Program-made: the position numbers and the translations under genes
DNA from: Patescibacteria group bacterium
Lineage (GTDB): Bacteria; Patescibacteriota; Patescibacteriia; CAIXNZ01
Direction of reading: 5' to 3'
Assembly (NCBI GenBank): GCA_041651155.1
Contig: JBAZJU010000008.1
Span: forward strand, 1,932 to 65,931
DNA: 64,000 nt
In this document: positions 2,720 to 55,249 of the stretch, piece after piece
Layout of the letters: each line of letters begins with the position of its first letter
Position numbering within the stretch: the first letter of the stretch is position 1
Notes under the pieces: model-generated
The model's input: only the letters and a program-made list of their open reading frames with translations
The model's database searches: none
What the model was told of the DNA's origin: nothing

Positions 2720-3778
2720 TTACATTTTTGAACTTTGCTCCATGGTTGAAGGCGAGGCAACATTTTTAAGCAAAGGCAGATCATCAAGCAAATAGCCGGT
2801 GCCTCTGACTACAGCAGTTAAGGGATCATCAGCCACAAAAACCGGAATTTGAGTGGCTCGGGAAATGGCAATGTCTAGAGATTTTAAAAGCGCGCCGCCG
2901 CCAGTTAGCAGGATGCCTCTCTCATAAATATCTGCCACTAATTCCGGCGGAGTAATTTCCAGGGTAGCTTTGACATTATCAATAATTATTCTGACAGATT
3001 TTGCCAAGGCTTCCCTGATCTGGCTGTCATTAACAATAATTTCTTTGGGCAGGCCAGTCACCAAATCACGGCCTCTCATCTGGGCTTCAAGGGGCTGCTT
3101 TAATTCTGCGGCTGAACCGATTTTAATTTTAATTTCTTCAGCAACTTTTTCGCCTAAAAGCAAGTTGAATTTGCTGCGCGCATATTGAATAATATTTTTG
3201 TTCATTTCATCACCGGCGATTTTTATAGTTTTCCAGGTCACAACGCCGCCTAAAGAAATTACTGCTATCTCAGAAGTACCGCCGCCAATATCAACAATCA
3301 TATTGCCCAAAGCTTCTTCAATCGGCAAACGGCAACCGATGGCCGCTGCCATTGATTCTTCAACCAGATAAACCTCGCGCGCACCGGCAGAATAAGCCGC
3401 ATCTTCAACTGCTTTTCTTTCCACTTCAGTAATATCCAATGGCACCCCTATAACTACTCTTGGTCGAGGCAGCAAATTAAAGCCTTCAGCATGGATTTTA
3501 TCAATGAAATATTTAAGCATTTTCTCAGTCACTTCAAAATCAGAAATTACGCCGTCAACCAAAGGTTTAATCGCAATAATATGGGCCGGAGTTTTGCCGA
3601 CCATTTTTTTGGCTTCACCGCCCACTGCTAAAATCTGATCAGTTTTAGAATTAATGGCCACGACTGATGGCTCATTAATCACAATCCCCTTATCTTTGAC
3701 ATAAACTAAAGTATTGGCAGTGCCTAAGTCAATGCCAATATCTTTGGAAAATCTGCCTAGAATTCTATCAAAAATCAT
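2720..3778 (-). CDS. mreB: rod shape-determining actin homolog MreB
   Basis: 352 aa, MIFDRILGRFSKDIGIDLGTANTLVYV...; actin/Hsp70 fold phosphate-binding motifs (DLGTANT, DIGGGTSE). Confidence 0.95.
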   Translation of the reverse strand: MIFDRILGRFSKDIGIDLGTANTLVYVKDKGIVINEPSVVAINSKTDQILAVGGEAKKMVGKTPAHIIAIKPLVDGVISDFEVTEKMLKYFIDKIHAEGFNLLPRPRVVIGVPLDITEVERKAVEDAAYSAGAREVYLVEESMAAAIGCRLPIEEALGNMIVDIGGGTSEIAVISLGGVVTWKTIKIAGDEMNKNIIQYARSKFNLLLGEKVAEEIKIKIGSAAELKQPLEAQMRGRDLVTGLPKEIIVNDSQIREALAKSVRIIIDNVKATLEITPPELVADIYERGILLTGGGALLKSLDIAISRATQIPVFVADDPLTAVVRGTGYLLDDLPLLKNVASPSTMEQSSKM

Positions 3779-3780
3779 AA

Positions 3781-3812
3781 TGATACTAATTTACAAATAT
3801 TATACTAATGAT
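3781..3812. promoter_or_regulatory. conserved 24-nt leader motif GATACTAATTTACAAATATTATAC (two ATACTAA repeats; contains TATAAT on the minus strand), immediately upstream of the mreB start
   Basis: 23/24 identical to the copy at 5626-5649, which sits upstream of the 5208..5600-proS operon. Confidence 0.5.
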
Positions 3813-3957
3813 ACAAATAGTTCCCCTGTTTTAATTCCAGATACCTGTCCATTTTACCTTTCTTACCTGTCATCCGACCTGTCTGCCATAGCTTAAGCGG
3901 AGGCAGAAGCTTTAGCGTAGGATGACCCCTTTTACCCTTCTTTCTCTTTTTACTCTT

Positions 3958-5211
3958 TTAAATTAATCCTTTAAGGTATTTTATCAGTTTATCCAGCTTA
4001 ACTATTTCCAGCTTATCAGAATTTCTCGGCTTTATTTCCACGCTTTTAGCTTGCAAAGTTTTTGCGCTTAAAACAAGCCTGAACGGAATACCGATTAAAT
4101 CACTGTCTTTTAATTTAATTCCAGCTGATTCTTCCCTATCATCATATAGCACTTCAAAGCCAGCTTTAACCAGCTCATTATATAACTTGTCCCCATTTTT
4201 TGCAAGTTCCTTTTCTGAACCTAAAGTCAGTAAATGCAGGGCAAAAGGAGCCACTTCTTGGGGCCAAATAATACCCTTATTATCATGATGAATTTCAACT
4301 ATAGTCCCCATAAGTCTGCCCAAACCCATACCATAACAACCCATAGTAATAATAACTTCCTGCCCCTCGCTATTATTTACTTTTAAATCAAAAGGAAGTG
4401 AGTATTTTGTCTTAAGCTTAAAAATATTGCCTGTTTCAATGGCCTTGGCTTCTTTAAAATCTTTAACAGTCAGATTGCAGGTTTCACATTTAGTTATAAC
4501 CTCAATAATTTCTTTATTATAAGCAATTTTACATTTTGGGCAGATATAAATTGTATCTTCACCGGCTGGCGTGACTGTTTGAAATTCATGTGAATATTTT
4601 GAGAATGAAGATCCAGAAGCCAAAGTCAGATATGTTTCTGCTCTAATCCCTGCTCTTTGAAAAATCTTAAAATAAGCATCTTTAGCTTTTTCATAATATT
4701 CATCCAAATCTTTTTCGTCTAAATGGAAAGAATAAAGGTCTTTCATGACAAATTCCCTGCCACGCAAAATGCCGGACTTTGAACGCAATTCCATTCTGAA
4801 TTTATTTTGAAATTGATAAATATAGACCGGTAAATCTTTGTAGGAATTGATGAATTTTTTCATTAATGGCACAACCACTTCTTCATGAGTCGGTCCCAGC
4901 GCAAATTCATGGCCGCTTGAATCTTTAACTTTGTATAAATCATCCATGCTTGACCAACGGCCTGTTTTTTCCCAATTATCTTTAGGATGCAATGAGGGCA
5001 TCACAATTTCCTGGCCGCCAATATTATTCATTTCTTCACGAATAATATTCTCAAGCTTTTTAAAAACTCTTAAGCCCAGTGGCAATAGAGTATAGACGCC
5101 GGCTGCCAATTTATCAATAAAGCCTGCCCTAATTAATAATTGGGCATTAAGGCTTTTTTCCTCCTCCCCTATTTCTTTTTTAGTTTTGGTAAATAAAAAT
5201 GATTGTTTCAT
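3958..5211 (-). CDS. proS: prolyl-tRNA synthetase, short bacterial type without the INS editing domain; carries a CxxC...CxxC insertion
   Basis: 417 aa. Aligns closely to the ProRS N-terminus and class II motifs (LIRAGFIDKLAAGVYTLLPLG, LGPTHEEVVVPL, FRMELRSKSGILRGREFVMKDLYSFH). Contains the insert CPKCK...CETC. Confidence 0.9.
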   Translation of the reverse strand: MKQSFLFTKTKKEIGEEEKSLNAQLLIRAGFIDKLAAGVYTLLPLGLRVFKKLENIIREEMNNIGGQEIVMPSLHPKDNWEKTGRWSSMDDLYKVKDSSGHEFALGPTHEEVVVPLMKKFINSYKDLPVYIYQFQNKFRMELRSKSGILRGREFVMKDLYSFHLDEKDLDEYYEKAKDAYFKIFQRAGIRAETYLTLASGSSFSKYSHEFQTVTPAGEDTIYICPKCKIAYNKEIIEVITKCETCNLTVKDFKEAKAIETGNIFKLKTKYSLPFDLKVNNSEGQEVIITMGCYGMGLGRLMGTIVEIHHDNKGIIWPQEVAPFALHLLTLGSEKELAKNGDKLYNELVKAGFEVLYDDREESAGIKLKDSDLIGIPFRLVLSAKTLQAKSVEIKPRNSDKLEIVKLDKLIKYLKGLI

Positions 5212-5600
5212 ATTTTTATGCTTGGTTTAGATTTATAGCCCATGAAAAATATTTCTAAGATGACAAAGGCCAGAATTAAGAAAAAAATGTTTCTCCAGAT
5301 TAACAAATTAGCGCTTTTTAAAAACAAGCTGATGACTATTAACAAAGAAAACCAAACTGCCTGGCGGAATGAGGTAATAACTTTTCTGAAGATTAAATGC
5401 TCTGAGGTAAAAAATATCCTGGCAATCAGGCCAATTATGGAAAAAATCCCGATTAAAGTCAGCAATAAGCTGAAATAAAACAAAATTAATGCTAACAGAT
5501 TGGCCTTTGTCGGATCAAAAAAATAAACTACTGCTAAAAAAGCAAAAAAGCAGGCAATGGTGCATAAAAGCATTAAAATAATATAAGATCTTAATGTCAT
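5208..5600 (-). CDS. small polytopic membrane protein, function unknown
   Basis: 130 aa, about 4 predicted TM helices. Its stop overlaps the proS start, so it is probably co-transcribed with proS. Confidence 0.45.
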   Translation of the reverse strand: MTLRSYIILMLLCTIACFFAFLAVVYFFDPTKANLLALILFYFSLLLTLIGIFSIIGLIARIFFTSEHLIFRKVITSFRQAVWFSLLIVISLFLKSANLLIWRNIFFLILAFVILEIFFMGYKSKPSIKI

Positions 5601-5610
5601 AATTATGACT

Positions 5611-5696
5611 TAGTATATTAAGTAGGGATACTAATTTACGAATATTATACGAATAATACTAATTGGAACCGTATGAAAATTTGAGAACTATTAGTA
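5611..5696. promoter_or_regulatory. cluster of four ATACTAA/TTAGTAT heptamers including the 24-nt conserved leader motif, upstream of the membrane-protein-proS operon
   Basis: ttagtat (5612), atactaa (5626), atactaa (5654), ttagtat (5690). Read directly from the sequence. Confidence 0.5.
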
Positions 5697-5702
5697 TATT
5701 TT

Positions 5703-5744
5703 GCCTGCCTGCCCTGCCTACCGGCAGGCAGGCGGCAGGCAGGT
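5703..5744. other. GC-rich imperfect palindrome (gcctgcctgccctgcctaccggcaggcaggcggcaggcagg) in an otherwise AT-rich 390-bp intergenic region
   Basis: Read directly from the sequence. GTAG is present in the loop on the minus strand. Confidence 0.5.
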
Positions 5745-5987
5745 ATTGAATTCGTACATTAGTATCCAAATATAGATAATGGCGTTTTACCAAATTTAGG
5801 CAAATACGGCACTAAAACAAAAAAACGCTAAGAACAAGTTAGCTTAATTTTAGCAAATTTATATAAATTTAGCAATTGCCAAAATGGCCCAAGAACATTA
5901 TTTAAATACCTTAATTTTCTTAAATTAACTAAATAAAAAACACCACGCAACGCGTGACGTTTTTGCAATAAAATCAATTTATACAAA

Positions 5988-6413
5988 TTAGCTTTGGCTA
6001 GCTTGCATCTTCTGCACTTTAATCTCCAGATCCGCTAATTGCTTTTTCATAATTTCAATATCGCGATAAGCAGCTGAGATATCCTCGCCTTCAAACGTTT
6101 CTATATTATCTAGCCTTTCTTTAATTTCTTTTAATTCAAGCCTAATATCAGCCAATTCCTGTTTAATTGGAACCAATAGATCTTCAAACGTAGATAGAAC
6201 TCTTATTTCCATTTGTTTTAAGTCTTCTTTAGTCGCAAAACGGTCCAAGTCTTCTTTGGTCGCAAAACGGTCCAAATCTTCTTTGTTAGCAAAACCATCC
6301 AAATCTTCTTTGGTCGCAAAACGGTCCAAATCTTCTTTGTTAGCGGCATTGTCTTTAATAAAAGTTACAATGTCTAATATATCTTTTATATTTTGTTCCT
6401 GGCTATTGTCCAT
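5988..6413 (-). CDS. coiled-coil protein with five tandem 9-aa repeats (ATKEDLDRF)
   Basis: 141 aa. Carries a 27-bp tandem repeat at nucleotide level, with a heptad-rich C-terminal half. Confidence 0.5.
   Translation of the reverse strand: MDNSQEQNIKDILDIVTFIKDNAANKEDLDRFATKEDLDGFANKEDLDRFATKEDLDRFATKEDLKQMEIRVLSTFEDLLVPIKQELADIRLELKEIKERLDNIETFEGEDISAAYRDIEIMKKQLADLEIKVQKMQASQS
6222..6356. repeat. 27-bp tandem repeat, about 5 copies, inside the coiled-coil protein gene
   Basis: Unit t[ca]gcaaaac[gc][ga]tccaa[ag]tcttctttg[gt] is repeated head to tail and encodes KEDLDRFAT repeats. Confidence 0.8.
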
Positions 6414-6905: not shown

Positions 6906-7115
6906 TTATTTAATATTTGTTTTTAGCTGACCCAGGACTGTATTAATTGCCTGCGCAATTGCTAAATCATCTGCTTTTAATTTTTCAACTTCTTTTTGCA
7001 AAGACATGTTGTTTATAAATAAAAAAACATTGCTCAAAACCAAAGCGCCTAAAATAAAAATTATTAGAACTTGAAGCCAGTCTATTCTATTTCCCTCTTT
7101 ATTAATTAATTTCAT
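6906..7115 (-). CDS. small TM plus coiled-coil protein (FtsB/DivIC-like architecture)
   Basis: 69 aa with one TM followed by a coiled coil (LQKEVEKLKADDLAIAQ). Architecture only. Confidence 0.3.
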   Translation of the reverse strand: MKLINKEGNRIDWLQVLIIFILGALVLSNVFLFINNMSLQKEVEKLKADDLAIAQAINTVLGQLKTNIK

Positions 7116-7162
7116 AATTTTCTAATTAGTAGATTAGTAATAAATTAGCTGATTAGTAACCT

Positions 7163-40925: not shown

Positions 40926-41004
40926 CTACAGATTACAGATATTTACAGATTTACAAATTTTTGAGATTTTCATTAGTATTTCTGTATGAATCTGTAATCT
41001 GTAG
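40926..41004. mobile_element. 79-bp MITE-like element with perfect 15-bp terminal inverted repeats (CTACAGATTACAGAT ... ATCTGTAATCTGTAG), between atpF and atpE
   Basis: Read directly from the sequence. A second copy lies at 43674-43754. Confidence 0.65.
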
Positions 41005-43673: not shown

Positions 43674-43754
43674 CTACAGATTACGGATAAATACAAATTT
43701 ACAGATAAATATAACTTTATAATTCGTATATCTGTACAAATCTGTAATCTGTAG
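43674..43754. mobile_element. 81-bp MITE-like element, second copy (TIR ctacagattacggat ... atctgtaatctgtag, 14/15 match), between tatD and cvpA
   Basis: Read directly from the sequence. Terminal repeats are shared with the element at 40926-41004. Confidence 0.65.
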
Positions 43755-49711: not shown

Positions 49712-49929
49712 TGGCTAATGAACATTTAATATTTAATGAAAAAATTATTCTTAAAAAGAATAATAAAATAAATTAAAAAATTATGCAAGAGGAAACTGTG
49801 CATAACTTTGATAAATCACAAAATCCAAATACCAAACTTCAAATAAATTTTAAAATCCAAGCACCAAATACAAAACAAGTTTGTAATTTGTAATTTAAAG
49901 ATTGGGATTTATTTGTGATTTGAGATTTG

Positions 49930-50910
49930 TTATTTGGTGCTTAAAATGGTTATTCTAACTTTCCCTAAATCACTTTGTTTGGGTAAGTGTTTTAATAAAC
50001 CATTTTTGGCTCCCATTCTCTGGATTACCCCATTGGCGTTTAAAATTGCTAAACGCAAACCATAATCCCAATCATTTTTTAATATCATCCCGGTACAAAA
50101 ACCAGAACCAAAAGCATCGCCAGCGCCTGTTGTATTAATCGCTTTGCTGCTTAGAGCCTTTGTATAGTAAATTAAGGTGCCATCACTTAAATAAGCGCCA
50201 TTAGCGCCATCTGTGACAAGATTATAACCCGGGCTTAAGTGATTTAATTCCTTAAAAATTGCTTTAATTTCTTTTTGGCCAGTTAACTTTTGCGCCTCCT
50301 CTTTATTTAGATTAAAAATATAAGTCTGCCTAATTAAGTTTTTTAATTTTTTAATTCCTAAATTCAACTCATCACTTCCCGGGTTCCAGCTGATTTTAAT
50401 TTTCTTCTTTTTGGCAAATGCAAAAATTTTATTCAATAATTTTAAATTGCCGGCTAAAGAAGTGAGATAAAACCATTTGGTTTTTAATTTTGGCCAATTA
50501 ATTTCTTTTTCAGAAAAATTAGCGCTGGCGCCGCGATAAACCAAAACTGTCCGATCTCCTTCGGGCATTAATAAAATTGTAGAATAGGCGGTTTTATGAT
50601 TTTTGTCAGCGATTAACTGGCTGATATCTATTTTTTTATCAGCCAAGGTGTGCATTATCTCCAAGCCATAGATATCCTTGCCCACGCGCGAAACAACCGC
50701 CGGGCTTAAGCCCAAATTGGCAAAAGTGTAAACGGAATTAGTGGCTCCCCCGCCTGTATCAAAATAAATATCACCTAATTCAACTTTGGAGCCATAAGCA
50801 AAGCATTCCCCCACTCCGGTTTTAAATTCACTGGATTTAATTAATTTAAAATTTTTGGATACTAAAAATACATCTTTAGTGGAAGAACCGATGGATATAA
50901 TGTCGTGCAT
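49930..50910 (-). CDS. PfkB-family carbohydrate/nucleoside kinase
   Basis: 326 aa. Motifs GGGATNSVYTFANLG and TTGAGDAFGSGFCTG. Confidence 0.8.
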   Translation of the reverse strand: MHDIISIGSSTKDVFLVSKNFKLIKSSEFKTGVGECFAYGSKVELGDIYFDTGGGATNSVYTFANLGLSPAVVSRVGKDIYGLEIMHTLADKKIDISQLIADKNHKTAYSTILLMPEGDRTVLVYRGASANFSEKEINWPKLKTKWFYLTSLAGNLKLLNKIFAFAKKKKIKISWNPGSDELNLGIKKLKNLIRQTYIFNLNKEEAQKLTGQKEIKAIFKELNHLSPGYNLVTDGANGAYLSDGTLIYYTKALSSKAINTTGAGDAFGSGFCTGMILKNDWDYGLRLAILNANGVIQRMGAKNGLLKHLPKQSDLGKVRITILSTK

Positions 50911-50949
50911 AAGTATAGGTTAATTTTGTTATTAATGAAAACTATTAAA

Positions 50950-51418
50950 CACGGATTATTTTCACGGATGCGCACGGATATTTTTCTAGTTAATTATTCG
51001 TTTAACTCTGACCCCATCCTTATTAAATATTATCAGTAAACCCAGCCTTAAATGATTCGCTTTTAAATAACTAAGGACTTGCTTAATATCCTTAGTATAG
51101 AATTCATTTGCCAGTTTTAATTCCACAACAATTTTATTTTCAATTACAAAATCCATGTAATATTTGGCTATAATCCTGCCATCGTACTTAATGTGCACAC
51201 AACATTCTTTCTTAAACTTTAAACCAGCATTTTCGTATTCAATTTGATGTGCCCTTTGAAGTACCTTCTCTCTATGCCCAAAACCCAACATATTATGAAC
51301 AGTATAAGATACGCCAATTATCTGTCGGGTCAATTCATAATATAATAAATCTTCTTCCCTAACTTTATTGTAAAAAAATCTGATAGATATCCGTGAAATC
51401 CGTGATTAAAATCCGTGA
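50950..51418. mobile_element. ~470-bp cassette bounded by inverted arrays of three CACGGAT heptamers, carrying a GxxExxY gene
   Basis: Left array: cacggatt (50950), cacggatg (50963), cacggata (50973). Right array: atccgtga at 51389, 51398 and 51411. Each array abuts the gene within 5-55 nt. Confidence 0.5.
50986..51333 (-). CDS. GxxExxY-family protein (PD-(D/E)XK-like), paralog 1
   Basis: 115 aa. The C-terminal 60 aa are near-identical to 52403..52774 (KQVLSYLKANHLRLGLLIIFNKDGVRVKRIIN). The N-terminal GxxExxY motif is degenerate here (GFGHREKVL). Confidence 0.55.
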   Translation of the reverse strand: MTRQIIGVSYTVHNMLGFGHREKVLQRAHQIEYENAGLKFKKECCVHIKYDGRIIAKYYMDFVIENKIVVELKLANEFYTKDIKQVLSYLKANHLRLGLLIIFNKDGVRVKRIIN

Positions 51419-51425
51419 TTCATAG

Positions 51426-52310
51426 TTAACCTTTCTTTTGTCTTACCCACAATTCAATAAAATACATAAAATTCTTCGCAATCAAACCAATCGCCTTTTG
51501 TTTATTTATTTTTTTATCCCTCCATCTTTCCAAAGGCCCATAAAAAATTGTTCGTCCCACAGCAAAACCAATAATTTCTTTAAACTTGTCTGCTGTTTTT
51601 AACCATTGGCTCACCAACTCTTTTGAACCAGCTCGACCCAAGACAATTATTTTTTCATCCTTGCCAATTAGTTTAATAATTTTTTGCCAGTCACTGTCTT
51701 TGTACATTGCTTCCAATTTCCAAATATCTGGTTTTACACCAAAAGCGCGTATTTCTTTAATTGCCTGGCAAGTTAGAGCCGGCCGAGCTTTGAGGTCATA
51801 ACTCTTTTTGTATTTTTTTAACTGAGCTGGTTCGCTCGGCACCAGGAGTTCAAAGAGAAATCCAATTTTCTTTCTTTTACAAAAGTCATTCAAAACTTTT
51901 AAACGTTTCAATTGAATCTGATTATCTTTTTTATTTATCGGATTATAACGTACCAAAACTTTGGCATAATCTGGCTTAAACTTCAAAATATGCGCGCCAA
52001 ATGTAGAACCATACTCAAAATCAAAAACATTCTGACCGCTTTTTTCAGTGGTTAAAATAGTTACTGCACCAAATTTCTTGGCTGAGCGTAAAATTTCTGT
52101 GCCAAACTCTTCATCAACTAAAACCCCCAACGCTTCCTTGCTTTTACTTTTGCTCCAAACTGCTTTAAACGCCTGCCAGATCATTTCTTTAGCTTCTTTT
52201 ACCTTATTATGCTGAGCTTTTGTCAAAGGCTCCTTAAAGCCAAATAAACCAGTGGCAAATGTCGCCCGATGGTCAAAAGGTAAGATGTAAAGTTGTTTAG
52301 GATCTTTCAT
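51426..52310 (-). CDS. class-I aldolase-like TIM-barrel protein (LacD / DUF2090-like)
   Basis: 294 aa. LYILPFDHRATF resembles the LacD/DUF2090 N-terminus (ALAFDQRGAL). Sandwiched tightly between the two GxxExxY cassettes. Confidence 0.4.
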   Translation of the reverse strand: MKDPKQLYILPFDHRATFATGLFGFKEPLTKAQHNKVKEAKEMIWQAFKAVWSKSKSKEALGVLVDEEFGTEILRSAKKFGAVTILTTEKSGQNVFDFEYGSTFGAHILKFKPDYAKVLVRYNPINKKDNQIQLKRLKVLNDFCKRKKIGFLFELLVPSEPAQLKKYKKSYDLKARPALTCQAIKEIRAFGVKPDIWKLEAMYKDSDWQKIIKLIGKDEKIIVLGRAGSKELVSQWLKTADKFKEIIGFAVGRTIFYGPLERWRDKKINKQKAIGLIAKNFMYFIELWVRQKKG

Positions 52311-52342
52311 ATATAAAGTAATATAATTAGAATTCTATGAAA

Positions 52343-52866
52343 CACAGATTTATACTCACTGATTACACTGATAAAATAAATAATCCACAGTCTGGAATAA
52401 TATTAATTTATTATTCTTTTTACTTTTACTCCATCCTTATTAAATATTATCAACAAACCTAATCTTAAATTATTAGCTTTCAAATAGCTCAAAACTTGTT
52501 TTACGTCTTTTGTATAAAAATCATTAGCTATCTTTAATTCTACCACCACTTTACCCTCTACAACAAAATCCATATAATACTTGCCAATTAATCTATCGAG
52601 ATAGAAAATTCTTACAGGAAATTCACTTTTAAAACTTATCCCTTGATCTTTAAATTCTTCCGCATATGCCCGATGATAAACCTTTTCCCGATAACCAAAC
52701 CCCAATTCGTTATAAACTTTAAATGAAATCCCAATAATCTTCTCCGTCAAATCTTCGTATAAAAACTCTTCCATACAAAATTTTTAAATGCAAATTATAA
52801 TTTATAGTATCTGTGAGCAGAATCAATGGTTCTTAAATCTGTGCAATCAGTGAATCAAATCAGTGG
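52343..52866. mobile_element. ~520-bp cassette bounded by inverted arrays of CACAGAT/CACTGAT heptamers, carrying a GxxExxY gene
   Basis: Left array: cacagatt (52343), cactgatt (52357), cactgata (52367), cacagtct (52386). Right array: atctgtga (52809), atctgtgc (52837), atcagtga (52846), atcagtgg (52859). Confidence 0.5.
52403..52774 (-). CDS. GxxExxY-family protein (PD-(D/E)XK-like), paralog 2
   Basis: 123 aa. Canonical motif GFGYREKVY (G-x-x-E-x-x-Y). Confidence 0.65.
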   Translation of the reverse strand: MEEFLYEDLTEKIIGISFKVYNELGFGYREKVYHRAYAEEFKDQGISFKSEFPVRIFYLDRLIGKYYMDFVVEGKVVVELKIANDFYTKDVKQVLSYLKANNLRLGLLIIFNKDGVKVKRIIN

Positions 52867-52876
52867 TTCCGTTATC

Positions 52877-53833
52877 CTATTTAAGTAATTTTCTTACTGC
52901 CTCAATTATTCCTTTAGTGTTCAAACCATATTTATCCAAAAGTTCTTTTCCCGTTCCCGATTCCCCAAATTTATCAGGCATACCAATTATTTTCATGGCT
53001 ACTGGATAATTTTGCGCCAAAACTTCTGCCACTGCGCTGCCTAATCCCCCATTTACCTGATGATCTTCAATTGTCACGACCCGATTTGTCTTTTTAGCTG
53101 ACTTAATGATTGTCTGCTTATCAATTGGTTTAATTGTATGGCAATTAATCACTTCTGCGCTAATTTTCTGTTTAGCTAATTCATCAGCAACCAAGAGAGC
53201 ATCATAAACCAAGGCACCGCAAGCAATAATTGTAATATCTTTTCCAGCGCGCAAAATTTCTGCGTGGCTGATTTTAAATTTTGAATTTTTATTTGTAATG
53301 ACAGGACTTTTGTCCCTGCCATAGCGAATATAAACAGGACCTTTGAATTTTGCAGCTGCCAAAACTGCTTTTTTTGTTTCCTCATAATCACAAGGTGCAA
53401 TTACAATCATATTGGGTAAAACTCGCATTAAAGCTATATCCTCTAAAGCCTGATGAGTGGCACCATCTTCGCCAACATTTAAACCAGCATGAGAACTGAC
53501 TATTTTAACATTGGCATTATTATAGCAAACTGAAAGGCGAATTTGTTCCCAATTTGTGCCAGGTGAAAAGACCGCAAATGAACAGATGAAAGGAATTTTC
53601 CCTTCCAAAGCCAAACCAGCTGCGACTCCTGCCATATTTTGTTCAGCGACACCAACTTCAATAAATCGACTTTGATATTTTTTCCCAAATTCAAGACAAC
53701 GAGTTGATTCAGCTAAATCAGCGCTGACAACTACCACATTTTTATTCTTTTTACCCAAAACCAAAAGCGCCGTGCCCAACCCATCTCGGCAAGCCTTTAA
53801 TTCTGGCTGTTTTGTTATTTGTGATTTGATCAT
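52877..53833 (-). CDS. transketolase, C-terminal subunit (pyrimidine-binding and C-terminal domains)
   Basis: 318 aa. Transketolase Pyr-domain alignment (FIEVGVAEQNMAGVAAGLA). Confidence 0.9.
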   Translation of the reverse strand: MIKSQITKQPELKACRDGLGTALLVLGKKNKNVVVVSADLAESTRCLEFGKKYQSRFIEVGVAEQNMAGVAAGLALEGKIPFICSFAVFSPGTNWEQIRLSVCYNNANVKIVSSHAGLNVGEDGATHQALEDIALMRVLPNMIVIAPCDYEETKKAVLAAAKFKGPVYIRYGRDKSPVITNKNSKFKISHAEILRAGKDITIIACGALVYDALLVADELAKQKISAEVINCHTIKPIDKQTIIKSAKKTNRVVTIEDHQVNGGLGSAVAEVLAQNYPVAMKIIGMPDKFGESGTGKELLDKYGLNTKGIIEAVRKLLK

Positions 53834-54006: not shown

Positions 54007-54828
54007 CTAACGGCTCAATTCCTCAAGTGCTTTTTCTGCCTCAATTTTTGATGGAGCTTTCCCGTGCCAGTTATAATCATTTTCCATAAAACTCACGCCT
54101 TTGCCGGGAATTGTGTGGGCGATTATAACTTTTGGCTTACCTTTTGTTTTTTTTGCCTTAATTAAGGCAGCCAAAATTTCTTTCATATTATTGCCATCAA
54201 TTTGCTGCACATGCCATTTAAAAGCTAAATATTTTTGATGCAAATGAGTCAAGGGCATTATTTTTTCAGTAAACCCGTCAATCTGAATCATATTGCGGTC
54301 TAAAATAAAAATTAAATTATCCAATTTGTATTTGGCAGCTGTCATGATTGCTTCCCAGGTTTCGCCTTCATCATGTTCTCCGTCACTAGTTACGCAATAA
54401 ATAAAATGTTTTTGTTTATTCATTTTCGCAGCCAAGGCCTTACCCACTGCCACTGAAACTCCTTGACCAAGTGGGCCTGAAGAACTTTCTAAAGCTGGCA
54501 GATCAAGATATGAAGGATGGCCTTGTAGTTTAGACCCTAATTTACGCAAGGTTTTTAACCAAGACAAAGGGAAATAACCAGCCCTAGCCATGGCAGCATA
54601 TCTAATTGGGCAAATATGGCCACATGATAAAATCAAACGATCTCTTTTGTCCCACAGCAGCTTTTTCGGGTCATGATTTAAAACATTAAAATATAAAGCG
54701 CTAAAAACATCAGCCATGCCTAAAGGACCCGCTGTATGGCCACTCCCTGCCTCAACCAGCATTTTAATCACATCTTGACGCAAAGTATTGGCCATTTTCT
54801 TAAGTTGTGCTAGGTTATATTTTTTCAT
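54007..54828 (-). CDS. transketolase, N-terminal subunit (TPP-binding)
   Basis: The ORF track extends to 54879. The likely start is MKKYNLAQLKK at 54828. Motifs GSGHTAGPLGMADV and GDGE-type TSDGEHDEGETWEA. Confidence 0.85.
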   Translation of the reverse strand: MKKYNLAQLKKMANTLRQDVIKMLVEAGSGHTAGPLGMADVFSALYFNVLNHDPKKLLWDKRDRLILSCGHICPIRYAAMARAGYFPLSWLKTLRKLGSKLQGHPSYLDLPALESSSGPLGQGVSVAVGKALAAKMNKQKHFIYCVTSDGEHDEGETWEAIMTAAKYKLDNLIFILDRNMIQIDGFTEKIMPLTHLHQKYLAFKWHVQQIDGNNMKEILAALIKAKKTKGKPKVIIAHTIPGKGVSFMENDYNWHGKAPSKIEAEKALEELSR

Positions 54829-55249
54829 TTTTATTAAAATACTCTCTATTTCTAAAAAGATAAATACTGCAGATGCCAAAAATAAATTTAGTTATAAATA
54901 TACCGTTTAATAATGATATTTCTTCATAATAACCGTAAAGAAACAAAAATATAATTTTAAAAATTTCCCAAAAGAATAAAAATAAAGCCGGAATAATTAC
55001 AAAGTATAGAGCCCAATTTCTTAATCTGTACAAAAAAATTCCTCCTATAAAACAATAAATAACAATTGCTATTGATTCAATAATCATTTCAAATAATGCT
55101 GGAAAATAATTTATAAAAACATCATACTTTATTATCAAATAAATAGTAGCAAGAAAATAAACAATACCAACAAATAATAAAATAACTGCAAAAATTCTGG
55201 CGAATTTATTAACATTTTTTATTTTATTCATATATTTATATTTCTTCAT
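54815..55249 (-). CDS. hypothetical membrane protein (144 aa)
   Basis: Four TM helices. Very AT-rich. ORF only. Confidence 0.3.
   Translation of the reverse strand: MKKYKYMNKIKNVNKFARIFAVILLFVGIVYFLATIYLIIKYDVFINYFPALFEMIIESIAIVIYCFIGGIFLYRLRNWALYFVIIPALFLFFWEIFKIIFLFLYGYYEEISLLNGIFITKFIFGICSIYLFRNREYFNKNEKI

Follow-up and report, generated by a model that had tools for sequence, protein, structure and literature searches.

Two GxxExxY nuclease genes in inverted heptamer arrays appear to be separate insertions at adjacent gene junctions of a Patescibacteria operon

Two small genes of the GxxExxY family, each enclosed by inverted arrays of short repeats, lie on either side of one aldolase-like gene in a Patescibacteria operon. 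Do the three genes form a single mobile unit, or are the two array-bounded cassettes separate insertions around a resident gene? The locus lies in a 64 kb stretch of contig JBAZJU010000008.1 (the whole stretch analysed, hereafter the window), with 36% G+C, from a metagenome-assembled genome of the Patescibacteria (candidate phyla radiation, CPR). The operon is read from the minus strand in the order TK_N, TK_C, GxxExxY-2, DUF2090/DeoC-like gene, GxxExxY-1 and pfkB kinase, and all features described below lie on this strand. A first-pass annotation had taken the region for a composite element in which two cassettes carry the aldolase-like gene as cargo. We compared the locus with homologous loci sampled by GxxExxY or pfkB queries (numbered L001 onwards), and we give about an even chance to the reading that each cassette is an independent selfish stem-loop element of the intervening-sequence (IVS) type, inserted at a gene junction of the TK_N–TK_C–DUF2090–pfkB operon.

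The arrays are concentrated around the two GxxExxY open reading frames (ORFs). The patterns CACNGAT and ATCNGTG match 35 times in the 64 kb, 13 of the 35 matches fall in four arrays of about 30 nt that bracket the two ORFs, and no further triple cluster of these patterns occurs elsewhere in the window. In gene orientation, each cassette begins with 5′ units of the form xAC-N-GAT, continues with the ORF and closes with 3′ units of the form ATC-N-GTx. Both cassettes carry 3–5 units per side in inverted orientation, and the start-to-start spacings of 13–14 and 9–10 nt are mirrored at the opposite ends. The unit of cassette 1 is CACGGAT, in six copies. At its 3′ end (50940..50979), CACGGAT is read on the plus strand at 50950, 50963 and 50973, and at its 5′ end (51389..51427) ATCCGTG is read on the plus strand at 51389, 51398 and 51411. 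The inverted repeat of this cassette outlasts the heptamers by 10 nt (outer parts 50940–50949 and 51418–51427); the segments 50940–50969 and 51398–51427 are 83% complementary over 30 nt, and the 5′ units pair with 50940–50979 in the predicted RNA fold. The outer part at the 5′ end shares 2 nt with the DUF2090 stop codon. Cassette 2 has CACAGAT/CACTGAT units, with the 5′ triplet duplicated. Its 3′ end (52311..52392) shows CACAGAT at 52343, CACTGAT at 52357 and 52366 and a degenerate CACAGTC at 52386; CTATGAAA (52335–52342) sits beyond the outer 3′ unit, and a conserved AT-rich tail (TTC..TAATTA box) reaches the DUF2090 start codon. Its 5′ end (52809..52876) shows ATCTGTG at 52809 and 52837, ATCAGTG at 52846 and 52859 and a degenerate ATCAATG at 52822, and after this array come GTTCC (52866–52870) and then 6 nt to the TK_C stop codon (52877–52879). 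The array is a tandem-duplicated triplet, of which the relative L094 keeps six units and the window has two decayed. The coordinates given in the first-pass annotation were all confirmed, and the array sequence differs between the cassettes (CACGGAT versus CACWGAT) with position and polarity kept, as had been noted. An AT-rich tail (TTTCATAG..TTCATTATTAA-like) lies past the outer 3′ unit of both window cassettes (50911–50940 and 52311–52334) and in L084, L086, L125 and L126. It stops 5–25 nt short of the downstream start codon, whichever gene follows (pfkB, DUF2090 or recJ), and it may be a translation-initiation region for that gene.

The two ORFs encode related proteins of the PD-(D/E)XK type. 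The gene of cassette 2 (52403..52774) encodes 123 amino acids, with E30, D69, E79-x-K81 and Q93xxxY97 intact. The gene of cassette 1 (50986..51360) is an ORF of 50986–51333 with a TTG start and an in-frame ancestral N-terminus that extends to 51360. Its canonical start is lost by an ATG to AGG change at 51358–51360, and the sole usable start is the TTG at 51333, nine residues in; the closest homologue, P0023, retains the MEEDLLYYE N-terminus. This loss may mark early decay of the ORF. The two proteins are 69% identical, and the 3′ halves of the genes are 76% identical over 185 nt of DNA; the paralogy proposed earlier stands, and the figure of about 80% given for the 3′ halves does not. In profile searches, both ORFs match PF13366 (PDDEXK_3) and TIGR04256 with E values of 1e-28 to 5e-34 (gene 1: 1.3e-28 for PF13366 and 9e-30 for TIGR04256) and with 100.2 and 118.7 bits for PF13366 (cut-off 22) and 103.4 and 117.3 bits for TIGR04256 (cut-off 35). 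The motif G27-x-x-E30-x-x-Y33, D69 and E79-x-K81 are invariant across 40 sequences and Q93xxxY97 is conserved too; residue by residue, G25, G27, E30, D69, E79, K81 and Y97 are invariant in the 40 homologues and Q93 is nearly so. PD-(D/E)XK motifs together with a QxxxY motif are typical for RecB/Cas4-type nucleases. The AlphaFold2 model is confident (predicted local distance difference test score, pLDDT, of 94.7), and the modelled fold is PD-(D/E)XK and RecB/Cas4-like, with an alpha-beta-beta-beta-alpha-beta core and with nucleases of this superfamily as structural neighbours. The profile matches and the modelled fold bear out the earlier assignment of GxxExxY proteins to this fold. A sequence search of the PDB with the cassette protein gave zero matches, and PADLOC and PHROGs gave marginal matches only, which lend no support to a known defence system or phage family.

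The family is large, with 30,301 clusters at 50% identity (E ≤ 1e-3), and we found neither a functional study of the GxxExxY/PDDEXK_3/TIGR04256/PF13366 family nor a published description of GxxExxY cassettes bounded by heptamer arrays in the literature. The ratio of nonsynonymous to synonymous substitutions per site (dN/dS) is 0.04 for the ORF, and dN is 0.06–0.14 where dS is saturated; by these values, the cassette ORFs are under strong purifying selection. Many top-scoring family members (among P0241–P0300) are about 260–275 amino acids long with two tandem GxxExxY domains, and these fusions suggest a dimeric enzyme. The two-domain proteins may be covalent dimers, or two neighbouring cassettes read through. 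Viral contigs hold 10 distant homologues of 147 amino acids, and arrays were found in none of them.

Regarding the aldolase-like gene, we compared the window with orthologous operons found by a metagenome scan with the pfkB protein. In the window, TK_N (54007–54879) and TK_C (52877–53833) precede the DUF2090 gene (51426..52310; a DeoC-LacD-like aldolase gene, PF09863, E 9e-37), and pfkB (49930–50910) follows it. The DUF2090 gene is spaced 8 nt and 32 nt from the neighbouring cassettes, a close flanking that the first reading had already described. In at least nine related contigs (L087–L090, L093, L096, L098, L100 and L103), the TK_C–DUF2090–pfkB operon carries no cassette. TK_C and DUF2090 overlap or abut, with an ATGA stop/start overlap, in L087, L088/89/93, L090, L092, L096, L098/100 and L103, and the gap between DUF2090 and pfkB is 9–11 nt in L087 and L103. 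Because both junctions are empty in relatives, the 566 nt (52311–52876) and 515 nt (50911–51425) at the two adjacent junctions of the window are inserts in an otherwise conserved operon. In the empty relatives, pfkB is 85% identical to that of the window, which is closer than in the doubly occupied L094 (76%); occupied and empty junctions are thus scattered without regard to relatedness. A single cassette is present in L004/L086, L084/L097 and L003. Since relatives have empty sites, the cassettes are independent insertions, and TK_C–DUF2090–pfkB is the ancestral operon in which DUF2090 is a resident and not cargo.

The same slots have other occupants and offer candidate target duplications. 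The DUF2090–pfkB slot holds a palindromic element of about 170 nt in L091, L096 and L100, a 797-nt ORF in L092 and, in L098/L099, a 93-nt ORF-less array hairpin with the GGAACCAC...GTGGTTC ends of the cassette. The palindrome of L091, L096 and L100 reads GGCGAAAACGCCCTTTGTCATTCTGAG ... CTCAGGATGACA ... GGGCGTTTTCGCC, and a similar-looking palindrome lies in the window at about 3830–3950, upstream of a solo array at 3784–3818. The candidate target duplications are ATTACTT at cassette 2 and TTAAC(C)TAT at cassette 1, 7–9 nt long; they are not repeated in L084, L086 or L125.

The history of the two cassettes was then compared through L094, in which the same two slots are occupied. Between the window and L094, dS is 0.97 for the first 240 codons of TK_C, 0.34 for its last 70 codons and 0.25 for the cassette 2 ORF, and it is 1.10 for DUF2090 and 1.16 for pfkB; the cassette 1 ORF is saturated. 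Sliding nucleotide identity follows the same course: TK_C is 68–87% identical and climbs to 90–93% over its last 180 nt, cassette 2 is 87–98%, DUF2090 75–90%, cassette 1 52–82% and pfkB 62–92%. From the low dS of cassette 2 and its upstream flank, it follows that their ancestor would be about four-fold more recent than that of the surrounding operon. In this one genome pair, the pattern indicates that cassette 2 was horizontally exchanged by recombination with co-conversion. Judged by dS against L094 (0.25 versus saturated), the two cassettes have different histories. The cassette 1 slot is occupied by differing lineages: the window and L084/L097 have six CACGGAT units and proteins that are 88% identical, and L094, L004 and L125 have CACWGAT units. 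The cassette 2 lineage (80–82% amino-acid identity) is also present upstream of recJ in other genomes.

A composite transposon, in which two directly oriented GxxExxY cassettes mobilise DUF2090 as cargo, would explain the order cassette, gene, cassette in direct orientation, which is seen both in the window and in L094. Empty sites and unequal dS lead us to reject it, and we consider it almost certainly wrong. DUF2090 lies between TK_C and pfkB with overlapping or abutting starts and stops in the at least nine cassette-free contigs, that is, at the identical place and neither absent nor elsewhere, as the first-pass annotation had allowed for; its dS equals that of the flanks. Relatives with a single cassette exist, the cassettes of the window differ in age and lineage, and the flanking elements are far from identical in protein (69%), DNA (76% over 185 nt) and units. 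The insertion-like nature of the cassettes, a part of the earlier proposal, is supported, since both the TK_C–DUF2090 and the DUF2090–pfkB junctions are found empty in relatives.

The cassette layout recurs in other contexts and phyla. Among close homologues with flanks, it is repeated upstream of recJ (L001, L126), in the syntenic operon (L002/L094) and in rearranged operons (L003, L125, L084, L086). A scan of species-representative genomes gave 80 loci from CPR lineages, Bacteroidota, Desulfobacterota, Chloroflexota, Planctomycetota, Acidobacteriota, Bacillota, Nitrospinota, Bdellovibrionota and others. Cultivable species among the carriers are Pedobacter segetis (L060), Cognataquiflexum rubidum (L030) and Mucilaginibacter gynuensis (L082). 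Scored as inverted 6-mers with at least 2 copies on each side, arrays surround 45% of 73 GxxExxY genes; among 155 control genes from these loci the share is 2.6%, and the single strong 'control' match is a second, divergent GxxExxY gene with four CGCTGA and four TCAGCG units. The 5′ and 3′ sides show a significant inverted alignment in 49 non-redundant cassettes. The unit varies by lineage (CACNGAT, TACGAAT, TACAAAT, AACGAAT, GACAGAT, CGCGGAT/C, CACAGAA, CACTGAA, CGCTAAT and others), and all variants fit roughly x-R-C-N-R-A-T. In the protein tree, unit type tracks the protein clade and not host taxonomy; for example, the xAC[GA]AAT cassettes of Bacteroidota, Planctomycetota and Bdellovibrionota cluster with the CPR cassettes of the same type. 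Array pairs less than 600 nt apart have forward and then reverse units, pointing inward, in all cases except a low-complexity AAAGTT pair (L026). The GxxExxY gene is co-directional with its upstream neighbour in 66 of 74 cases and with its downstream neighbour in 60 of 71, with median gaps of 78 and 54 nt, and these gaps of about 50–80 nt are occupied by the arrays. Promoter and terminator matches at the cassettes are at background level only. Across these loci, arrays and gene form one heritable module in many phyla, and the recurrence of the layout together with the empty sites in close relatives supports the earlier claim that the arrays form the inverted termini of separate, insertion-like units. 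We also asked if cassettes that are neighbours use orthogonal units; this is true in the window and in L018 and fails in L094 and L125, and the idea was dropped.

Some of these modules occupy tight junctions. In L010, L012 and L029, a cassette lies exactly between rpsG and fusA, where the arrays begin 2–6 nt past the S7 stop codon and end 0–4 nt before the EF-G start codon. In the atp operon of L061 (Planctomycetota), a hairpin lies between atpA and atpG and a cassette after atpG. The hosts of the rpsG–fusA and atp cassettes are highly expressed, essential operons. Expanded arrays were also observed: dozens of CAGGAT units over more than 1 kb in L075 (Leptospira, about 2940–4140), eight CACTGAA units 5′ of the gene in L020 (2809–2893) and three tandem blocks 152 nt apart in L030 (2449–2887).

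Arrays placed directly 5′ of a start codon, in some clades with no room left for a separate ribosome-binding site, also call to mind autoregulation. The arrays would then be ordinary DNA operators, or RNA sites in an untranslated region, at which the GxxExxY protein itself or some regulator of the host acts on the expression of the small gene without any mobility, and repeated short units are typical for cooperative binding. We hold this explanation to be very improbable. As a rule, the gene has a mirror-image array on its 3′ side too, array pairs exist that enclose no ORF, the empty sites lack the arrays along with the gene, which makes the entire module an insertion, and the catalytic residues of the nuclease are invariant.

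The closest architectural likeness among known elements is to the IVSs of rRNA genes. The 23S rRNA IVS of Coxiella burnetii carries tandem GACAGAT heptamers (two to three, plus GACAGAA) directly 5′ of a small ORF, in a copy number that differs between strains; it is bounded by a 28-bp terminal inverted-repeat stem and is excised by RNase III, with the 5′ cut at the first repeat (PMC4990558). GACAGAT recurs as the unit of cassette L023 and differs from CACAGAT in a single base. The rRNA genes of CPR bacteria bear IVS-type inserts with ORFs of PF05635 (S23p / 23S_rRNA_IVP), the documented IVS ORF family, and ORF-less short versions exist (PMC11270868). Like the IVSs of Coxiella, Leptospira, Salmonella and CPR, the cassettes are inserts of about 0.4–0.5 kb in a transcribed region, have a terminal inverted-repeat stem (predicted in the cassettes) around a small ORF with heptamers adjoining it, and are sporadically distributed, which for the IVSs has been ascribed to horizontal transfer. 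The differences lie in place, protein and stem. First, the cassettes lie at gene junctions of mRNA operons and not within an rRNA helix. Second, the cassette ORF is PD-(D/E)XK (PF13366), whereas that of the IVS is a four-helix-bundle S23p protein (PF05635). Third, the cassette spacers are non-complementary and the stem is interrupted; processing of the cassettes by RNase III would be expected by analogy. The link to rRNA IVSs that the first-pass annotation suggested for GxxExxY genes therefore holds for the architecture, with the Coxiella heptamers, stem and small ORF, and fails for the ORF family. PF05635 genes were also observed co-directional between ordinary genes, at 811–1224 in L078 and at 2501–2872 in L138 and in L139–L144, in the last of which the gene lies between a signal peptidase gene and hisS. 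In L078 and L138–L144, these genes have an inverted repeat of about 45 nt that includes the first codons. PF05635 homologues are 83–88% identical across many CPR phyla (3,986 matches at E < 1e-8), a remarkable degree of conservation given how far their hosts have diverged.

On the selfish stem-loop reading, the element would measure about 0.5 kb and would consist of a GxxExxY nuclease gene inside inverted arrays of 3–6 inward-pointing xRC-N-RAT heptamers, with an AT-rich tail into the next gene. It would have no promoter of its own and would be transcribed with the operon. In the RNA, the 5′ and 3′ arrays would pair like a zipper, over a long range, into a stem with the ORF enclosed, the repeated units offering several registers. 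By the Coxiella precedent, RNase III would cut this stem and remove the insert from the RNA, and the element would be tolerated between essential or highly expressed genes. The nuclease would serve the maintenance or spread of the element, either by cutting empty alleles in the manner of homing or by acting on the arrays themselves, and not host metabolism; the element would spread and be replaced by recombination between genomes, as seen for cassette 2. We infer the biochemical roles of both arrays and nuclease from these likenesses. In minimum-free-energy folding, each cassette is closed by its arrays, with z scores of −3.7 and −3.0.

Several observations weigh against this reading. If the arms were maintained by pairing in RNA, mismatches might lean towards wobble pairs; we found no bias of the RNA type (81 G·U-type versus 72 A·C-type mismatches, p = 0.52). 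The central base disagrees in 47 of 141 aligned unit pairs (33%), much like the spacers (27%), and unit positions 3, 5 and 6 disagree once each among the 141 pairs. The spacers between units are mostly non-complementary. This per-position pattern favours sequence-specific recognition of the unit, which predicts it, over simple conservation of a helix, and the unit consensus shared across phyla would not be required by pairing alone. A search of 20 loci with Rfam, which gave tRNAs only, and of the supplement of PMC11270868 yielded no GxxExxY cassette within an rRNA gene, and the ORF families of documented IVSs and of the cassettes are different ones. The co-conversion signal comes from a single genome pair, the window and L094, and is one-sided (the last 70 codons of TK_C). 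Lastly, long residence can be read either way. In the three related genomes with a cassette between rpsG and fusA, the GxxExxY proteins are 57–69% identical and EF-G is 70–79% identical. The cassettes are more diverged than EF-G in these related genomes, and inheritance at this slot therefore looks vertical; cross-phylum homing at rpsG–fusA, which we had considered, was rejected on the same grounds. Such long vertical residence of some cassettes looks to fit a maintained function as well as a parasite. In turn, the mismatch test does not exclude pairing, because repeated units can pair in shifted registers and the predicted folds of both cassettes are closed all the same. Shifted registers weaken the mismatch argument, and the conservation of the unit sequence is still unexplained by pairing alone.

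The unit conservation leads to the main rival, a DNA-level mobile element, which we regard as a serious possibility on the unlikely side. Here, the arrays would lie subterminally as the sites that the element's own GxxExxY nuclease binds or cleaves; as a dimer or oligomer, this nuclease would synapse or cut the two ends in a transposon-like manner or drive homing into empty junctions; the ORF-less hairpins would be non-autonomous derivatives resembling miniature inverted-repeat transposable elements (MITEs), and the RNA stem would be incidental. In the 141 unit pairs, what is conserved is the unit as sequence and not as pairs (one mismatch each at positions 3, 5 and 6, 47 at the centre), with spacers free and no wobble bias. 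At both ends, the units keep a fixed polarity, number and spacing, in mirror image, unit type and protein clade are inherited together across phyla, and arrays of the cassette's own unit are 17-fold enriched in its own locus (for example, the CGCTGA hairpin of L018). The catalytic residues are intact and under purifying selection, the many tandem two-domain fusions suggest a dimeric enzyme, and empty sites, a one-sided co-conversion tract and possible direct repeats of 7–9 nt at both window cassettes would all be expected of such an element. Against it, similar heptamers surround an unrelated PF05635 ORF in the Coxiella IVS, and the units are therefore not specific to GxxExxY proteins alone. 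Near-identical copies within a genome are not seen, the window pair being 69% identical; a nuclease domain of 120 amino acids has no known strand-transfer activity; and the direct repeats are not reproduced in other loci. Differing unit variants coexist, one cassette can mix A, T and G as central bases, and the viral homologues lack arrays.

Known DNA elements match the cassettes in part. With homing endonuclease genes, whose free-standing examples include the T4 seg/mob genes and whose PD-(D/E)XK enzymes include I-Ssp6803I, the cassettes share a small, co-directional nuclease gene between conserved genes, patchy presence with precise empty sites and many divergent paralogues each tied to its own locus. 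They also share a cassette younger than its flanks with a co-converted flank (the one-sided TK_C tract of the single genome pair). To our knowledge, homing genes need no border repeat arrays, and the ORF-less array hairpins have no counterpart there. With MITEs and the Correia elements of Neisseria, the cassettes share short inserts bounded by terminal inverted repeats (TIRs) in intergenic parts of operons, and ORF-less copies. Correia-type elements are co-transcribed into hairpins that RNase III can process. Both they and MITEs end in single long TIRs with a defined target duplication, occur in many near-identical copies and lack an internal nuclease ORF. Copies of the present cassettes are few and divergent, and their target duplication is uncertain. 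Tested as TIR transposons or MITEs, the cassettes have terminal inverted repeats and no transposase of the DDE, HUH, serine or tyrosine kind, the sole ORF being a nuclease domain of 115–123 amino acids; no near-identical second copy of either cassette occurs within the window. An analogy with type III toxin–antitoxin systems, in which a repeat RNA precedes a nuclease, was dropped, as the period is 7–14 nt and not about 36 nt, and a mirror array lies downstream.

Related arrays also occur without a GxxExxY gene. With a looser motif, [CT]AC-N-[GA]A[TA], at least three times within 45 nt, the window has 13 clusters, the four cassette arrays among them, versus 0.47 ± 0.74 (maximum 3) in 100 Markov shuffles of the window. 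Outside the cassettes lies an ORF-less hairpin at 40926..41003, which reads TACAGAT TACAGAT tca TACAGAA, a loop and ATCTGTA aat ATCTGTA ATCTGTA, folds with −31.7 kcal/mol (z −7.9) and lies between an ATP synthase subunit c-like gene (identified by reading its translation, not by a profile scan) and the next downstream gene. About 2.7 kb upstream of it in gene orientation, a second ORF-less hairpin (43675..43753; fold z −5.3) has 4 + 4 units TACAGAT / TACGAAT and lies between two genes. ORF-less inverted arrays CACAAAT/TACAAAT ... TTTTGTA/TTTGGTG occupy about 49790..49900, in the 424-nt gap downstream of pfkB, and L109/L110 have a similar hairpin directly after pfkB. The window also has single arrays. 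A solo array at 3784..3818 has four units ATTTGTA/ATTAGTA in gene orientation, with spacings of 9, 11 and 8, and stops 5 nt before the start codon of the gene at 2720–3778. A solo forward array at 7125..7158 (three TACTAAT units) lies just upstream of a 69-amino-acid ORF (6906–7115). A further array, at 5629..5663, has four units ATTAGTA/ATTCGTA on the 3′ side of a 390-nt non-coding gap (5600–5990). This gap contains forward units, TACTAAT g TACGAAT, some 100 nt upstream of the reverse array (plus strand about 5763–5777), and a terminator-like hairpin near its 5′ end. No ORF longer than 52 amino acids and no tblastn match to GxxExxY was found in the gap, which may be a decayed cassette or an unrelated RNA.

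These features appear to be ORF-less derivatives of the arrays at other operon junctions. The first-pass annotation had held that arrays occurring broadly upstream of unrelated genes, as ordinary operator sites, would refute it. This condition applies in part: related arrays do occur at other intergenic sites of the window, but they include inverted ORF-less pairs, which are hairpins and not one-sided operators. In other loci, hairpins often match a nearby cassette in their unit (L018, L012, L061), and the locus of a cassette is 17-fold enriched in additional arrays of that cassette's unit type; in L018, a CGCTGA hairpin lies 3.3 kb from the CGCTGA cassette. The units of the window hairpins (TACAGAT, TACTAAT, CACAAAT) differ from those of the window cassettes (CACGGAT, CACWGAT). 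Outside the arrays, the plus strand has 18 ATCNGTG versus 4 CACNGAT matches, a bias that could be an effect of coding-strand composition. A Chi-like recombination hotspot was considered and rejected; the window has 22 copies of the heptamer outside the arrays versus about 24 expected for both strands, which is no excess, and sites at the cassette border would not promote recombination of the flanks.

Scattered hairpins and a nuclease gene recall the partnership of repetitive extragenic palindromic (REP) doublets forming hairpins (REPINs) with REP-associated tyrosine transposases (RAYTs), in which a nuclease-type gene in single copy lies between inverted copies of the repeats, stays for long times with mostly vertical inheritance, and has lineage-specific repeat sequences (PMC3116915, PMC5581495). 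In a domesticated partnership of this kind, the hairpins would be useful to the host as mRNA stabilisers, processing sites or insulators, and a vertically inherited GxxExxY nuclease would maintain or disperse them. We judge this to be improbable. It would explain the REPtron layout, a gene flanked by inverted repeats of the element that it services (PMC3116915, PMC3337134, PMC5581495), and the array clusters, of which the 64 kb has 13, most of them without an ORF and situated at operon junctions such as that after the ATP synthase c-like gene. The long stay in one slot (rpsG–fusA and the slot upstream of pfkB) would fit it too, as would paralogues that are divergent single copies and not identical ones. 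However, the units of the window hairpins mismatch those of both cassettes and a cognate gene is not visible in the 64 kb, presence is patchy, and dS shows horizontal movement, by which the gene-bearing copy has been replaced. The protein is RecB/Cas4-like PD-(D/E)XK and not an HUH/Y1 (IS200/IS605-like) transposase, and the repeat is an array of 7-nt units and not one palindrome of about 20 nt with a GTAG tetranucleotide.

In the rest of the window, the minus strand carries all long ORFs; only two ORFs of at least 130 amino acids lie elsewhere, and both are inside longer minus-strand ORFs. A tRNA scan found no tRNA in the 64 kb, and Rfam families gave zero matches both in the cassette region and in the whole window.

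If the selfish stem-loop reading of the cassettes is extended, GxxExxY cassettes, rRNA IVSs and ORF-less hairpins would form one ancient, pan-bacterial selfish class, a protein-dependent 'intergenic intron'. As DNA, its arrays would be sites of the cognate nuclease that drive homing or transposition into gene junctions; as RNA, they would be a multi-register zipper cut by RNase III or by the nuclease. We put this unification forward as a doubtful conjecture; if it is true, PF13366 and PF05635, two very large orphan families, would each gain a function. If the selfish stem-loop reading itself is right, the 30-year-old puzzle of the IVSs would also be widened, with IVSs as the rRNA-resident subset of a class that is also present in atp, str and pentose-phosphate mRNA operons. 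The array marks have a use for annotation, since they show the borders of elements and explain odd small genes in conserved operons of CPR, Bacteroidota and other bacteria. For the GxxExxY family, the result is a concrete, testable biology. About half of the sampled members, in more than 15 phyla, lie inside inverted heptamer arrays, and these modules appear to be operon-junction insertions of the same design as rRNA IVSs, which are gained, replaced and decay into hairpins.

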